NCBI GenBank assembly: GCA_039024555.1
Contig: JBCCQQ010000001.1
Coordinates: 160,001-224,000, forward strand
Direction: 5' to 3'
From: Cyanobacteria bacterium P01_D01_bin.156
GTDB lineage: Bacteria > Cyanobacteriota > Cyanobacteriia > Phormidesmidales > Phormidesmidaceae
DNA length: 64,000 nt
Shown here: positions 56,129 through 63,245 of the stretch, in pieces
Numbering within the stretch: position 1 is the first letter of the stretch
Layout: every line of letters starts with the position of its first letter
Notes under the pieces: model-generated
The model's database searches: none
Told to the model about the DNA's origin: nothing
What the model saw: only the letters and a program-made list of their open reading frames with translations
Position numbers and translations under genes: made by a program

Positions 56129-56647
56129 TTAATCCTTCTCGATATGACGTTTTACAGAATTCAAATCAATATATCGATCGGTCGCATTGCGCAGTTCCCT
56201 TGCAATCATTCCTTCTGTGGACACAACGGTGATGTGAGTATTTTTGGAGCGCAGTAACTCGATAGCTCGCTCAAAGTCACCATCCCCACTAAACAAAACA
56301 ACCCGGTCATACTGAGCGGCTGTGTTGAACATATCAATAACAATTTCAATATCTAAATTAGCTTTTTGGGAGTAACGTCCAGAGTTATCGTCATAGTACT
56401 CCTTTAGAATTTTTGTGCGTACCGTATATCCCAGGCTAATTAAGGCATCGCGAAACCCGCGCTGGTCTTGAGGATCTTTAAGCCCTGTGTACCAAAAAGC
56501 ATTGATTAATGTAGACGGGACTGTTTCGTGGGTAAAGTACTCAAGCACACGTTTAGGGTCAAAAAACCAGCCATTTTTCTGCTGGGCGTAAAACATGTTA
56601 TTGCCATCTACAAATATAGAAAGGCGACTTAACGGTTGCGTATGCAT
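56129..56647 (-). CDS. labA: LabA-like NYN-domain protein
   Basis: FVDGNNMFY, KANLDIEIVIDM and LFSGDGDFER motifs. Confidence 0.8.
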   Translation of the reverse strand: MHTQPLSRLSIFVDGNNMFYAQQKNGWFFDPKRVLEYFTHETVPSTLINAFWYTGLKDPQDQRGFRDALISLGYTVRTKILKEYYDDNSGRYSQKANLDIEIVIDMFNTAAQYDRVVLFSGDGDFERAIELLRSKNTHITVVSTEGMIARELRNATDRYIDLNSVKRHIEKD

Positions 56648-57545: not shown

Positions 57546-59945
57546 ATGAAGCACGATGACGTTGATGTTACGGTTACGCTTACTTCTCAAGATCGTCTCC
57601 GCAATCGTATATCAACAATCAGTTTTGCGAAACGCTGGAGAGCCTATTTGAATGGGTTTTTAATTGGTCTAGCCGCGCTTGCAACCGGCAGCGAGTTAGG
57701 TGTCGTACGTTCATTAGAAAGCCAAGGTCAGGCTTTGATGTGGGAAGTCCGAGGTTCCACAGCGGCTCCAGAAGATATCGTCATACTAGCAATCGATGAA
57801 GAGTCATTATCTCAAGGGCAACATTATTTGGATGAACCGGAGGCATATCCAGAGTTAGCAGCTATTAGTTCTTGGCCGTGGCCAAGGGCAACTTATGCTG
57901 CAGCTGTGGATAAGCTCTTAGCAGCAGGTGCGGATGCTGTGGCACTGGATATTGTTTTTGCCCAACCTAGTAGTTACGGCCCAGAAGATGATCGCGCCTT
58001 CAGGGAGGTATTGGCTCAAAAAGGTGAGCGAGTGGTGCTAGCGGCAGAATACGGAGATGTAGATTTACGTCAGGGCTCATTACTGCAGCCAACACTGCCC
58101 TTACCGGACCTACGTGAAACTCCAGTTAACGTAGGTGCTATTAACTTCCCCATAGAACCTAATGGTAAGATTCATCGTCTAAGTCGAGAGTTCTTAAATC
58201 ATCTGCGGGAAGTTGAGGCAAATTTTCTTGGGATAGACTTTTTGGCTGAGACCGGAGAGCCTCGTGTACTTAGTTTTTCTGAAGCCACACTAGAAGCAGC
58301 ACAAGCGGACTACGCACAAGATCATCGAGACCACATCTTCTTTCACGGTCCTGGTAAAACGTTTCAACATGTACCCTTTTGGTACATTCTAGACAACCAA
58401 CTGTGGCAATCTCAGCTTGATAACGGGCGTTTTTTCAAGGATAAAATCATTCTGATTGGTTCTACAGCAGCACTCCTACAAGATTTTCACGCGGCTCCTT
58501 TTTCCAGTGGATTTCTTTACTCTGAACCAATGGCTGGCGTAGAGATTTTAGCAAATACCGTTGCGAGTCTTCGAGATGATTTGGTGCTGTATTCAGTAGC
58601 GCAGCGTTCATGGATGAGCGCATTCATAGTTGCTGGATGGTTAGGAGGAATGGCGATTTTTACAAGCCGAATTTCGTCGCGACAACCTTTACGCCGTGTA
58701 ATGTTAGCGGCTATTGGTGCAGTTATTTGGGGTGGAATTGGATTCCTGCTGTTTACGTTAGGTGGACTTATTCTCCCTATGGCAGTTCCTATTTTAGGCG
58801 TCTTAGGATTTGCGACAGCAGATGCTGCCATCGGATTATTCAGTGAGCAACTTCAGAAGAAAAATTTACGCAATACCTTAGCACGCTATGTTACCTCACC
58901 CATTGTTCAGGAAATCATTAGCCAACAGGACGATCTCAAAGATTTGCTGACTGTCCATGAAAGTGAAATGATTGGAAAGTTACTCAGCGATCGCTACCGA
59001 ATTAAGAAAATTCTAGGCTCAGGTGGATTCGGAGAAACTTACCTAGCTGAAGATATGCAACGACCTGGTAATCCGGTGTGTGTCGTCAAACAGCTAAAAA
59101 TCGTTAGTGATAATCCTAAGGCACACTCATTAGCACAACGCTTATTTTCATCAGAGGCAGCCACCTTAGAACGGCTAGGGGAACACGATCAAATACCTCG
59201 TTTGTTAGCTTATTTTGAAGCAAGTTATTCGTTCTATTTAGTCCAGGAAATGATTGATGGGACCCTGCTAAGGGAGCACCTCGATCCACGCAATCCCATG
59301 TCACAACGGGCCGTAGCAGAGTTTTTAATGGATTTACTACCAGTCATTAAAGCTGTTCATGGGCAGGGAGTAATTCATCGTGATATCAAGCCCTCCAATA
59401 TCATCGTTCGACATAGCGATGAGCGCTATGTCTTGATCGATTTTGGAGCTGTCAAACAAATATCCAATCGTTTAACAGATACCAATGCCCGCATTACGTC
59501 TACGGTTGGTATTGGCACCCAGGGATATATGCCCAGTGAACAATCAGCTGGATTACCAAACTTCAGTAGTGACATCTATGCCTTGGGTGTAACAGCCATA
59601 GAGGCACTTACTGGCTTACCTCCCCATGCTCTTCAGAGGGACAGCAACGGTGAAATTAAGTGGACTCACAAGGTGCCGGACTTAGAGCCTGGATTAGCAA
59701 GCGTAATTGAAAAAATGGTGCGCTATGACTTTAATCAGAGATATTCTAATGCGGGTGAAGTGTTAACGGCATTACGACAGCTAAGCTTCAATATTCTATC
59801 GACAGAGGCCCCTAAGTACTCAAAACTAGCAGCTGAATCAATGGCACCTGAAGATACTAAACTGACAACGATGATTTTGCCAACAGACTGGGATAAAAAC
59901 TATAAAAGGCCAAACGATACAACAGCGATTGATGACAATAATTAG
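57546..59945 (+). CDS. CHASE2-sensor transmembrane Hanks-type Ser/Thr kinase
   Basis: CHASE2 motifs (IVILAIDE, WPWPR, DFH..P, GVEILAN), three TM helices, kinase motifs LGSGGFG, VVK, HRDIKPSN, DFG and GTQGY. Confidence 0.92.
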   Translation: MKHDDVDVTVTLTSQDRLRNRISTISFAKRWRAYLNGFLIGLAALATGSELGVVRSLESQGQALMWEVRGSTAAPEDIVILAIDEESLSQGQHYLDEPEAYPELAAISSWPWPRATYAAAVDKLLAAGADAVALDIVFAQPSSYGPEDDRAFREVLAQKGERVVLAAEYGDVDLRQGSLLQPTLPLPDLRETPVNVGAINFPIEPNGKIHRLSREFLNHLREVEANFLGIDFLAETGEPRVLSFSEATLEAAQADYAQDHRDHIFFHGPGKTFQHVPFWYILDNQLWQSQLDNGRFFKDKIILIGSTAALLQDFHAAPFSSGFLYSEPMAGVEILANTVASLRDDLVLYSVAQRSWMSAFIVAGWLGGMAIFTSRISSRQPLRRVMLAAIGAVIWGGIGFLLFTLGGLILPMAVPILGVLGFATADAAIGLFSEQLQKKNLRNTLARYVTSPIVQEIISQQDDLKDLLTVHESEMIGKLLSDRYRIKKILGSGGFGETYLAEDMQRPGNPVCVVKQLKIVSDNPKAHSLAQRLFSSEAATLERLGEHDQIPRLLAYFEASYSFYLVQEMIDGTLLREHLDPRNPMSQRAVAEFLMDLLPVIKAVHGQGVIHRDIKPSNIIVRHSDERYVLIDFGAVKQISNRLTDTNARITSTVGIGTQGYMPSEQSAGLPNFSSDIYALGVTAIEALTGLPPHALQRDSNGEIKWTHKVPDLEPGLASVIEKMVRYDFNQRYSNAGEVLTALRQLSFNILSTEAPKYSKLAAESMAPEDTKLTTMILPTDWDKNYKRPNDTTAIDDNN

Positions 59946-60054
59946 ATGCTTAGATAATCAGGCTTATTAAGGGAATAGATTGCTCTATCTAGAAAGAGCA
60001 CAAGTTGAGAGTCCAGTAGCGATTACTCTATAACTGGCTACGGTAGCAATCTCA

Positions 60055-61650
60055 TCAATTACCAGAAATATCATTTTCACTATCAATAATTTCAAGCTGA
60101 AGCCCAGCAGGTAAATCATCAGGCGGTGAGTCAGTAGCACCTTCAACATTAAACCCAAAATCTTGGCTATCGGCTGGTGCACGCTCCGCCGATGGCAAGC
60201 TATCGGCTGGAATATTTGATACACCGCTATCCACGATTGACGCACTAGAATCTACAGATAAAGTATTGTCTGGAATAGCAGATGGACCACCATTCACTAC
60301 CGACAAACCGGAATCTACGGATGAAGTATCGCCTGGAATATTAGATAGACCACTATCCACGATTGACGAACTGGAATCTACAGATAAAGTACTGTCTGGA
60401 ATAGTAGATGGACCGCCATTCACTACCGACAAACCGGAATCCACGGATGAAGTATCGCCTGGAATATTCGATAAACCACTATCCACTATCGACAAACTAG
60501 AATCTGCAGAGGGACCTACAACTAATGGTCTAGCTATGGGTTCTGATGCATTAGAGACTGATGGATTTGACACTACCTGCCGATTGTTGTCAAACCGTCG
60601 AGCAGCTCTCGAACTGGTGATTGGTGCAGTCAGGTTAGTATTATCTGATTCACTCTGAACCACAGGGCTACTATCCGGGGCATAGCCACGAGCTGGCTGT
60701 AATGTAGTAGCGGTAATCTGCGGAGTAGAGCTGTGAAAAACAGCAGCAGGAGAAGACTCAAAGGATGGAAAACCTGAGAATGCAACCACATCGAGGCCTT
60801 CCAGCTCTAGCTCAGTAACATTTGCGATCGCAGGTGTAACAATTTCAGGATTTACGACAATCTGCTCAGAAGAGCCATACTCGTCAAAATTTCCCTGCAG
60901 CTCTAAAGCATCCTGAATTTCTAGCCACACATCATGCAGATCATCCGACAAACTAGCTGGAGGAGTTTCACTATCTAAATCTAAACCTTTAGCTAAGCCA
61001 CTAGTTTGGTAGAAGGTACGCAAGTCAAATTCCAAACTCTCAGTGATGGTGTCACCTTCAATAATCACCATTTCTCCAGCATAAAGAGCTTGTTGCTGAT
61101 TACCGCTACCATTGAAGGCCATCATCGCACCAGCGGAATTGTTAGTCAGAGCACCCACAATCGTTACTGGAGAAGCACATTGCCCTACATCAAAACCATC
61201 TGCTACGCAATGAACGCGCACAAACAGAGCAGATCCCTGAATACCCGTCACAGCATTAGGGGTTTGAATAGTTGTGCGCCCTTGTCCTGGCGGGATGAGC
61301 AGCAGTACAGTGCCATTGGAAAGCTGAAAATTACGAGTATCCGGGGTAAAACGAAACGTTGCCTGTTCACCAACCCGCGCTAATGAACCATCATTGAATC
61401 GTAATTCAGCCCGTGCCGATGTCGAGGTACGTAGAGCATCACCGATACTCATTAGATCTGAAACCCTAGCTCTTCGTGCACGTCGGCCGCTAGGAATGAG
61501 ATGAACTCTATTACGGAGGGTTTCAACCCTAGCCTGAGTGAGAGGCGTTTGAGCTAAGGCAATAGATGGCAAACCCAGCAAGGAAGCTGAGCCTAGCAAA
61601 AAAGAGTACCAGCGGGCAGAAACTTTGCACATACGAAGTAATGATTTCAT
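60055..61650 (-). CDS. Exported FecR-domain protein with Ser/Asp/Pro-rich repetitive C-terminus
   Basis: Signal peptide (..ALA|Q), GDALRT..ARAELRFNDGSLARVG...QTPNAVTGIQGS FecR motif, then a low-complexity tail. Confidence 0.88.
   Translation of the reverse strand: MKSLLRMCKVSARWYSFLLGSASLLGLPSIALAQTPLTQARVETLRNRVHLIPSGRRARRARVSDLMSIGDALRTSTSARAELRFNDGSLARVGEQATFRFTPDTRNFQLSNGTVLLLIPPGQGRTTIQTPNAVTGIQGSALFVRVHCVADGFDVGQCASPVTIVGALTNNSAGAMMAFNGSGNQQQALYAGEMVIIEGDTITESLEFDLRTFYQTSGLAKGLDLDSETPPASLSDDLHDVWLEIQDALELQGNFDEYGSSEQIVVNPEIVTPAIANVTELELEGLDVVAFSGFPSFESSPAAVFHSSTPQITATTLQPARGYAPDSSPVVQSESDNTNLTAPITSSRAARRFDNNRQVVSNPSVSNASEPIARPLVVGPSADSSLSIVDSGLSNIPGDTSSVDSGLSVVNGGPSTIPDSTLSVDSSSSIVDSGLSNIPGDTSSVDSGLSVVNGGPSAIPDNTLSVDSSASIVDSGVSNIPADSLPSAERAPADSQDFGFNVEGATDSPPDDLPAGLQLEIIDSENDISGN
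60207..60500 (-). repeat. Intragenic 126-bp (42-aa) repeat, about 2.3 copies, made of 7-aa subunits
   Basis: CTGGAATATT..GAT..ACC.CTATCCAC recurs at 60207, 60333 and 60459; protein unit SIVDSGL-SNIPGDT-SSVDSGL-SVVNGGP-STIPDST-LSVDSSS. Confidence 0.85.
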
Positions 61651-61997
61651 GGGCAGAAGTTTGAACGATGCACCGAGCAGGTACTTTTACTCTGCTCCAC
61701 TAGTAATATTACCGAACTTTTCTGCATCGTGACCAGCACCATATTTATGATTCCTTTACAGTGTGGGCTGTTTTTTGTACTTCAGTCGGAGTTTTGAGGA
61801 ATAATTCGGAGTTTTTAATCGTTTGGTAGAAAATCCTAATTATTTAGTTTTGCCATACTAAACTCAGTGCTTCTAGAGATTTTAGTCAAAGCTATTGTTT
61901 CCTTATTGGGAGAAAATTACGTCATTCGGCAGTTGAGTTACGTTCAAAATGCTGATAGCAAGGTATATGAGTGTCTTAGCAGTGTGGAACGTTTGTA

Positions 61998-63131
61998 ATG
62001 AGGCTGTTTTCTAGACCAAGGTTGATGATAGAAATTTTCGCAATCGGTCTTGGCAGCTGGGTTCTACCTGACGGTCACGCTTTGGCTAAAATCGGACAGG
62101 TGCCAGCTTTTGACGATAACAATGCAGTCACATCAGATCAGGTTGAAAGTCCGGCGACTCTTCGTCAACATGCTTTGGATCATGCTGAATCCGGTCACAC
62201 TCACAAGAGTCATATAAGTCCTAAAGATGAAGATAAGGATAGTGAGAACGCAGCCGAATCATATCCAGAGCAGATAAACCATGAGGATGATGCGGCAACT
62301 ATTATCGACGATGAACTAGGCATTTTACGGGTAAGATCGCGTCCCATTGGTATCGATGGTGAGTTGGGAGTGCTGCGAATTCGCCCCACGGAAGATGTTC
62401 CTTTAGAAGTTGAACCAGAACCCACCCGGCAAACCACAGTATTCCTCACTGGCCGGGCGAATGTCTTTGGCGGCAATAACCTGTTTCGTACCCCCAATCC
62501 AATTGATGATCGAATTTATCAAACTGGGTTGGGGGTTTTTGCGTTTCCAAAACTTGGAGACAAAACTAACTTGATTTTGAGTGCCGAAACAAATCTGGCT
62601 CGATACGAAGATCTCTCAGTTGTTGACTACAACGAAATTCAATTCCAAGCAGGTATTCGTCAACGATTGGGACGTCGCAGCTATGGACAGATTAACTGGC
62701 GTTATCAAAATCTCAGTACCCCAGGTAGCGATTCCTTCTTTTCAGCAAATTACGCGGAGTTACTACTCAGCCGTCGAGATATTCTGAATAACCGCACTTG
62801 GCTAGACGCATACTATCAAGCCCGCTTAAGCCTTAGCGATCCTGAAGAATTTAGCCGGTTTACCCAGATTGCAACGGGCTCGATCAACTATGGATTTAGT
62901 CCAACAACTCGAGTTAGCCTACTGTACCAACTCTTTCTAGATGACTACATAGAAACGCCCCGAAACGATACCTATCACCAGGTATTGGCACAATTTAGCC
63001 ACGACCTCTCGAGTACTACCCGATTTAGCCTATTTACCGGCGCTAGATTTGGTGACTCTTCACGAGCAACTGTCAACTTTGACGATATTATCTATGGGGC
63101 CAGTATGAATATCAACTTGCCGCTGTTTTAG
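61998..63131 (+). CDS. Predicted outer-membrane beta-barrel protein
   Basis: Signal peptide, disordered acidic/His-rich N-terminus, about 230 aa of alternating amphipathic strands rich in Y/F, and a terminal Phe (..NINLPLF). Confidence 0.75.
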   Translation: MRLFSRPRLMIEIFAIGLGSWVLPDGHALAKIGQVPAFDDNNAVTSDQVESPATLRQHALDHAESGHTHKSHISPKDEDKDSENAAESYPEQINHEDDAATIIDDELGILRVRSRPIGIDGELGVLRIRPTEDVPLEVEPEPTRQTTVFLTGRANVFGGNNLFRTPNPIDDRIYQTGLGVFAFPKLGDKTNLILSAETNLARYEDLSVVDYNEIQFQAGIRQRLGRRSYGQINWRYQNLSTPGSDSFFSANYAELLLSRRDILNNRTWLDAYYQARLSLSDPEEFSRFTQIATGSINYGFSPTTRVSLLYQLFLDDYIETPRNDTYHQVLAQFSHDLSSTTRFSLFTGARFGDSSRATVNFDDIIYGASMNINLPLF

Positions 63132-63245
63132 AAAGATGCCGTCCTTAGAAAGATGCCGTCCTTAGAAAGATGCCGTCCTTAGAAAGATGCCGTCCTTAGA
63201 AAGATGCCGTCCTTAGAAAGATGCCGTCCTTAGGAAGATGCCGCC
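63128..63245. repeat. 6 x 17-bp perfect tandem repeat plus a degenerate 7th copy
   Basis: TTAGAAAGATGCCGTCC at 63128, 63145, 63162, 63179, 63196 and 63213; 7th copy TTAGGAAGATGCCGCC at 63230. Confidence 0.97.

Follow-up and report, generated by a model that had tools for sequence, protein, structure and literature searches.

Co-inheritance of a predicted outer-membrane barrel, a FecR-domain protein and a CHASE2 Ser/Thr kinase in Cyanobacteriia suggests an envelope-spanning signalling unit

How could an event at the outer membrane govern a Ser/Thr kinase anchored in the inner membrane? This question is raised by three neighbouring genes in a 64,000-nucleotide stretch of the genome of Cyanobacteria bacterium P01_D01_bin.156 (assembly GCA_039024555.1, contig JBCCQQ010000001.1, positions 160,001 to 224,000), hereafter the window. 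They encode a kinase with a CHASE2 sensor, a FecR-domain protein designated FecR-A and a predicted outer-membrane barrel protein. The original prediction, made from the letters of the window, had seen in them a candidate trans-envelope signalling system, and a check of the open reading frames (ORFs) recovered the three genes with the same coordinates and strands. The accessible parts of PMC5192318 and PMC10581220 state that the input sensed by CHASE2 is unknown. We consider it fairly probable that the three genes constitute one envelope-spanning unit, in which the barrel binds FecR and FecR partners the CHASE2 domain of the kinase, switching Ser/Thr phosphorylation. A broader proposal is put forward more tentatively, as a slightly less than even prospect: FecR proteins would be the cognate partners of CHASE2 domains, clade by clade, and cyanobacteria would have converted a barrel-FecR-cyclase unit into an outer-membrane-controlled receptor kinase by means of tethers and a docking motif.

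Joint retention and loss of the three genes

The barrel was searched with a single-sequence query in a first sample of 301 genomes of the phylum, in which barrel-negative means unmatched by that query. It matched 35 genomes, the window's own included, but none in the eight families listed last in the sample (165 genomes, mostly of other classes). For a check of the neighbouring genes, 36 other barrel loci were fetched from 34 genomes. A FecR gene adjoins the barrel gene at every one of these loci (36/36), and a CHASE2 kinase gene comes next after FecR at eight (8/36). Since CHASE2 as a whole family is near-universal (276/301 genomes, many copies in each), a family-wide search was uninformative and a subfamily profile was built instead from the sensor-membrane-linker part of nine clustered kinases. 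The CHASE2 of the window represents a distinct subfamily, scoring 615 bits on this profile, which includes the window sequence, against 63 bits for the next paralogue in the genome. Searched in the 34 barrel-positive genomes and in 46 barrel-negative ones, hand-picked from 127 candidates and mostly larger than 4 Mb, the profile identified the subfamily in 33 of the former and 2 of the latter. Furthermore, all 33 barrel-positive carriers have the kinase form, the 25 unlinked matches included, and both barrel-negative exceptions are cyclases.

A second sample consisted of 301 genomes of the class Cyanobacteriia, where profile searches matched the barrel in 112, the sensor in 148 and FecR in 122 genomes. 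Sensor matches, most of them not fetched, were typed as kinase or cyclase from the length of the frame and the end of the profile match, a proxy that agreed with the sequence in 38 full-length kinases and in the fetched cyclase loci. Barrel and kinase occur together in 105 genomes, the barrel alone in 7, the kinase alone in 1 and neither in 188. The strict count of genomes with both is 103; the other two (G540 and G400) were recovered by relaxed searches of doubtful genomes, the 188 not being among those so searched. Once 18 genomes belonging to the first sample are removed, 87 of the remaining 94 barrel-positive genomes have the kinase form. Six of the seven barrel-only genomes combine divergent barrels with the cyclase form, which is present in at least 62 genomes of this sample, and the seventh (G382) has neither form. 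The one genome with the kinase alone is assembled in 730 contigs, and its FecR-A gene sits close to the end of one of them. One divergent barrel, that of G383, was itself searched against named genomes and matched its own contig only. The FecR profile, in turn, matched 111 of the 112 barrel-positive and 11 of the 189 barrel-negative genomes.

Joint presence and absence also split within families, namely f7 (24/24 against 0/9), f6 (10/10 against 0/19) and f1 (26/26 against 0/3), as well as inside f2, f22 and the genera g19, g41 and g139. The kinase and barrel genes lie within 8 kb of each other in 35 of the 105 genomes, from nine families. In all 35 the FecR gene stands between them, inverted as in the window in 24 cases and co-oriented in 11. 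The co-occurrence persists in the other 70 genomes, where the kinase is more than 8 kb from the barrel, in some merely by contig breaks. Collectively, these counts show that the three genes are almost always retained or lost together and that their grouping exceeds chance by far. Co-conservation of the three families had been named beforehand as the first point on which the original prediction could fail, and it held.

Features of the three proteins

The kinase is composed of a predicted membrane helix, a periplasmic CHASE2 domain, three further predicted helices, a linker of the cyclase type and a Hanks kinase domain (Table 1). By simple hydropathy, hydrophobic stretches at residues ~36-54, 355-374, 385-403 and 401-420 match this 1+3 arrangement of helices. 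The catalytic motifs are intact, as predicted, with GSGGFG, K515, E537, HRDIKPSN, DFG and SDIYALG all found; the Gly loop, the Lys, the helix-C Glu, HRD and DFG of a CHASE2 Hanks kinase are present together with an N-terminal CHASE2. Judged from these motifs, which also predict phosphotransfer activity, the window protein is a Hanks-type Ser/Thr kinase with a CHASE2 sensor. Among 38 full-length kinases of the subfamily, the catalytic motifs are retained in 33-38. The sensor part is 38% identical to that of a CHASE2 cyclase over 478 residues, which points to one sensor type with two outputs, kinase and cyclase. The linker is likely a retained transducer element of the cyclases, to judge from its alignment; this cyclase element and its motif are described in the accessible part of PMC5995499.

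A comparison of the CHASE2 profile with the PDB matched no solved structure by sequence. One kinase form (L121:549-4310) reaches 1254 amino acids (aa), being ~450 residues longer. The kinase is also present in Nostoc PCC 7120, where BAB76537, which from the accession numbering we take to be all4838, falls in the 90% cluster of a subfamily match, and Trichormus variabilis ATCC 29413 has homologues of both the kinase (ABA21731) and the barrel (ABA21402). Table 2 of PMC3141674 reports all4838 as 6.6-fold increased at 12 h of nitrogen step-down. Together with alr1869 and Ava_2109, it is tabulated among the cyanobacterial CHASE2 Ser/Thr kinases in a genome survey (PMC2176072). All three share the domain layout of the window kinase, and the accessible part of the survey gives nothing but their domains, connecting them with neither FecR nor barrel genes and assigning no function.

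FecR-A matches PF04773 at residues 71-145, above the curated cut-off, and no other family above cut-off. Its N-terminus is signal-peptide-like, ending in A-L-A (judged by eye), and is followed by a folded domain at residues ~34-269 (model pLDDT 89.5) and by a low-complexity tail of ~260 aa, rich in Ser, Val, Pro and Asp. Tails of the aligned homologues are variable (median ~220 aa) and often repetitive, and some FecR-A proteins are nearly tail-less. In the window protein and its orthologues alike, the folded domain has only ~33 residues ahead of it, so that the protein is without an anti-sigma part, in agreement with the original prediction. In a Foldseek comparison, BDI_1681 and PupR matched the fold with their periplasmic domains (E 3e-5 to 1e-4). 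By analogy, the pair G139-S140 may be a self-cleavage site like that of E. coli FecR, cleaved at G181-T182 according to the accessible part of PMC12036975, the alignment here being to NsrA of Sinorhizobium meliloti and not to E. coli FecR. A G-S or G-T pair is kept in 23/26 aligned rows of FecR-A and in 10/10 rows of the FecR-B clade described below. A close paralogue of FecR-A in the same genome (L108:4059-5582, on G000:C76) shares 55% over the domain. In a different genome (G260, loci L060 and L106), the FecR-A gene is split in two distant halves, the second of which adjoins a transposase gene, and the barrel and kinase frames are open.

The barrel protein combines a signal-peptide-like start, an acidic low-complexity arm of ~110 aa and the barrel itself (residues ~148-377) with a terminal Phe, which recurs in 141 of the best 150 of 542 representatives. 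In the AlphaFold2 model (mean pLDDT 89.8), the C-terminal ~235 residues form 12 long strands without a plug, and a structure search with this model matched outer-membrane barrels exclusively. The 12-strand fold is also that of autotransporter translocators and FapF (Z 14.7-16.0, root-mean-square deviation 3.1-4.2, 209-224 aligned residues), solute channels being tied with them. No Pfam family was matched, PF10082 included. Membership of the BBP2/EpsL-type barrels (PF10082, TIGR03014) was considered and rejected, as there is no full-length match above cut-off: the window barrel reaches E 0.002 and 17 bits on EpsL TIGR03014, whose cut-off is 275, and two of the four homologues scanned match BBP2_2 over the last ~95 positions only. 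In the same 150 representatives, the barrel lies at the C-terminus, lengths are 208-675 aa and the arm has a median length of ~220 aa; a weak search for longer or fused homologues turned up none. A motif E/D-L-G-x-L-x-x-R (hereafter ELG), present just before the barrel, occurs in 136 of the 150, in at least two copies in 71, against 78 of 3000 shuffled arms (2.6%), the motif having belonged to the profile by which the representatives were retrieved. Since it is short, repeated and located in a flexible arm, the ELG motif suits a docking site and could be a candidate for one, most simply for FecR-A.

Table 1. Coordinates of the three genes and of their features in the window
Feature	Position	Strand	Remarks
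CHASE2 Ser/Thr receptor kinase	57546..59945	+	799 aa
CHASE2 domain (PF05226)	57681..58646	+	residues 46-367, E 2e-41
Linker past the last membrane helix	58866..58925	+	residues ~441-460; aligns with the CHASE2-cyclase linker
Hanks kinase domain (Pkinase)	58995..59747	+	residues 484-734, E 8e-35
FecR-domain protein (FecR-A)	60055..61650	-	531 aa
Tandem repeat (63/126 bp) encoding a portion of the FecR tail	60201..60510	-	
G139-S140 pair	61231..61236	-	aligns with G-T of NsrA
Predicted outer-membrane barrel protein	61998..63131	+	377 aa; possible start at residue 10
Two copies of E/D-L-G-x-L-x-x-R in the arm just before the barrel	62313..62384	+	conserved

A Pfam scan of the flanks identified a NYN-domain gene and a DAHP synthase gene, so that neither an extracytoplasmic function (ECF) sigma factor nor a TonB-dependent receptor is adjacent, as had been noticed from the sequence. 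The NYN-domain gene (window 56129-56647) is divergent from the kinase gene. Most kinase loci have an ORF of 172-194 aa at this place and a leuA-like gene after it, the Pfam assignment having been checked at one locus. Between the convergent barrel and DAHP synthase genes, a 17-bp unit is repeated in 6.8 near-perfect copies (window 63128-63243). In the gap between the kinase and FecR genes, a scan for promoters and terminators gave no signal above chance.

Cyclase relatives and competing explanations

Cyclase forms of the receptor adjoin a gene of a second FecR clade, FecR-B, at L033, L092-L094, L114, L115, L128 and L130, and are without such a neighbour at L116, L117, L126, L127 and L129. FecR-B was searched in 80 genomes chosen from the earlier results, 8 of the 40 cyclase genomes among them having supplied the alignment. 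It was found in 36/40 genomes with the cyclase form, 1/20 with the kinase only and 1/20 with neither, the last two being weak partial matches. The four cyclase genomes without FecR-B carry the barrel and FecR-A. These data suggest that each form of the CHASE2 receptor has a FecR clade of its own as partner. At L033, L114 and L115, the genes for FecR-A, the barrel, FecR-B and a CHASE2 cyclase form a cluster of four, and in these genomes the barrel may serve both receptors.

In G383, a member of the Gloeobacterales, the genes for FecR, barrel and CHASE2 cyclase are co-oriented and separated by 14 and 11 bp. A FastTree tree was built from 42 sensor regions, 17 similar kinases of family f7 being left out, and was read without a formal clade test. 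The kinases all group together (support 0.76) and have as their sister group the FecR-B-type cyclases (0.85), the node that joins the two having a support of 0.998. The cyclases of G383, G500 and G397 lie outside this group. Because of the G383 operon and this topology, the sequences suggest, with moderate support, an ancestor made of barrel, FecR-A and cyclase, in which the cyclase was later swapped for a kinase. After a duplication, one copy would have gained the kinase and kept the barrel and FecR-A, the other keeping the cyclase with FecR-B.

Additional FecR and CHASE2 arrangements were observed. In the genome of the window, a second cluster (L107:6218-10229; G000:C53:39217-43228) has two tandem FecR genes directly upstream of an adenylate/guanylate cyclase of another CHASE2 subfamily, which begins one base past the second FecR stop. 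A second pairing of FecR with an outer-membrane barrel in cyanobacteria involves a further FecR clade, whose gene directly precedes, on the upstream side, an SLH-OprB porin gene at L097, L098, L101, L102 and L103. At G000:C18:95147-98273, an exported-looking ORF of 276 aa, presumably DUF928-like, stands directly upstream of another CHASE2 cyclase and is possibly another class of CHASE2 partner.

On the reading that we favour, the predicted outer-membrane barrel would bind the likely periplasmic FecR-domain protein, which would act as partner of the CHASE2 domain of the kinase, and this contact would turn Ser/Thr phosphorylation on or off. The low-complexity arms of the barrel and FecR could stand in for the TPR arm of NsrA, with the repeated ELG motif of the barrel arm as docking site. 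The kinase might be governed via the dimer helix inherited from the cyclase; it keeps the cyclase linker helix, through which a change of the dimer formed by CHASE2 could be passed on to the kinase domains. As for the cue, our guess by analogy with NsrA is a surface macromolecule or contact.

Several observations weigh against this reading, in addition to the provenance of the ELG counts. The genes of the window do not form one operon, the barrel and FecR genes being divergent and the FecR and kinase genes convergent, and most genomes keep the kinase apart from the barrel-FecR pair. The adjacency of the kinase and NYN genes is as well kept, so synteny alone proves little, and the sampled genomes are related, which inflates the apparent independence of the counts. 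FecR-A-like genes occur in 11 genomes without a barrel match, and neither a barrel nor a CHASE2 gene accompanies the second FecR-A paralogue of the window's genome in the 14 kb examined. In a comparison at the sequence level only, the barrel profile did not match the one NsrA sequence used. Furthermore, the accessible part of PMC5498481 describes the S. meliloti FecR gene smc02177, located beside cyaD1, as dispensable for signal perception, and that of PMC13719327 reports binding of host proteins by Leptospira FecR proteins.

The barrel could instead be an exporter or holder that threads the FecR tail to the surface as an antenna or adhesin, in which case the FecR domain would contact CHASE2 on the inside and the tail would do the sensing. 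FapF (Z 15.2) and autotransporter translocators (Z 14.7-16.0) are indeed among its near-tied structural matches, and FecR tails are long, variable and often repetitive. A related FecR clade precedes the SLH-OprB porin gene in 5 of the 12 extra-FecR loci fetched, so that FecR is not confined to a single kind of barrel, and FecR-B with the cyclase form exists without this barrel. We nevertheless find this threading unlikely, given that solute channels match equally well or better (COG4313 and CymA, Z 16.5; OmpG, 16.4; KdgM, 15.7), that some FecR-A proteins have hardly any tail and that the FecR-A alignment shows no conserved C-terminal export signal.

Quite improbable, in our judgement, is an inside-out or indirect arrangement, in which the barrel and FecR assemble or survey some structure of the envelope (sheath, exopolysaccharide or adhesion) and the kinase controls it without contacting them. 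A FecR clade of its own for each CHASE2 form fits direct pairing of cognate partners better, FecR stays tight against the CHASE2 gene both in the G383 operon and in the tandem-FecR cluster of the window's genome, and no recurrent glycosyltransferase or export cluster was seen among the annotated neighbours (54 proteins scanned). What speaks for it is that co-inheritance gives no direction, that the kinase is unlinked in most genomes and that there are weak links to polysaccharide export, namely the EpsL score, the partial BBP2_2 matches and the presence of BBP2_2 in 11-33% of the members of the top Atlas clusters. A third explanation, in which only the barrel and FecR belong together and the same lineages inherited the kinase as a neighbour without relation to them, seems very improbable and is largely refuted already. 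Related genomes share genes, to be sure, and in family f7 the NYN gene stays beside the kinase in more cases than FecR does; yet joint loss recurs within several families and genera, co-occurrence persists where the genes are unlinked, and the single kinase-only genome in 301 is the fragmented assembly with FecR-A near a contig end.

What gives these genes their value is how nearly complete their co-inheritance is, together with the clade-specific pairing of FecR; the CHASE2 input thereby becomes directly testable. As two sister CHASE2 receptors have their own FecR clades, matched and swapped FecR-CHASE2 pairs can be compared. If the favoured reading is true, it would provide an upstream input for a cyanobacterial Ser/Thr kinase that about one in three sampled genomes carries, and it would assign a role to a barrel family annotated as hypothetical. 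The literature search, with subscription papers mostly outside its scope, found no study linking the barrel, FecR and the CHASE2 kinase in cyanobacteria. The novelty claimed in the original prediction stands to that extent for cyanobacteria, whereas the FecR-CHASE2 design itself, in some cases accompanied by outer-membrane proteins and in others not, is in print for Sinorhizobium, Burkholderia and Campylobacterota.

Comparison with known systems

With the FecA-FecR-FecI and PupB-PupR-PupI systems, the window FecR has in common the FecR fold and a G-S/G-T motif resembling the self-cleavage site; only 141 columns of FecR-A align to the 213-residue PupR chain. Membership of the classical FecIRA class was rejected, as there is no sigma factor, anti-sigma domain or TonB-dependent receptor, and the barrel has 12 strands without a plug, not 22 plugged ones. 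FecR and CHASE2 genes are also clustered in other phyla. The accessible part of PMC5192318 describes a Burkholderia cluster, BiofilmReg, of a regulator, a LysM-FecR protein and a CHASE2 histidine kinase, and that of PMC9239204 a Campylobacterota cluster of a CHASE2 cyclase, a phosphodiesterase, a FecR protein of the outer membrane and a TPR protein. In both, an exported FecR protein is likewise encoded beside a CHASE2 receptor and assigned to one proposed pathway. They differ from the cyanobacterial genes in phylum and output, and no small barrel, Ser/Thr kinase or test of FecR-CHASE2 contact is described in these parts of the two papers.

A further close system is that of S. meliloti, where signalling to CHASE2 cyclases requires NsrA according to the accessible parts of PMC7529298 and PMC13001267. 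NsrA with CyaK, CyaD1 and CyaD2 likewise combines a barrel, a FecR domain and an inner-membrane CHASE2 receptor. By position and size, we identify NsrA with an ORF of 1219 aa with FecR and TPR regions, directly upstream of the pSymB CHASE2 cyclase (L109), in a record that is unannotated. Its FecR domain aligns with FecR-A in a profile comparison (prob 91, E 9e-7), and the CHASE2 and membrane part of CyaK aligns, through the linker, with the kinase sensor (prob 99.7, E 1e-25). The analogy with the NsrA system drawn in the original prediction is one of true homology for the FecR and CHASE2 parts. On the other hand, NsrA holds FecR, a TPR arm and a large barrel in one polypeptide, whereas two genes without TPR are found here, and its barrel of ~600 aa, as given in the accessible part of PMC7529298, contrasts with the ~235 aa and 12 strands of the cyanobacterial one. 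The output of CyaK is cyclic AMP (cAMP), that of the window receptor a Hanks kinase, with cyclases in the sister forms. The module would work like NsrA-CyaK without being a member of that system, having two genes, no TPR, a different barrel and a kinase output. It is likely a split version of the rhizobial NsrA system, in which the cAMP-making end was swapped for a kinase.

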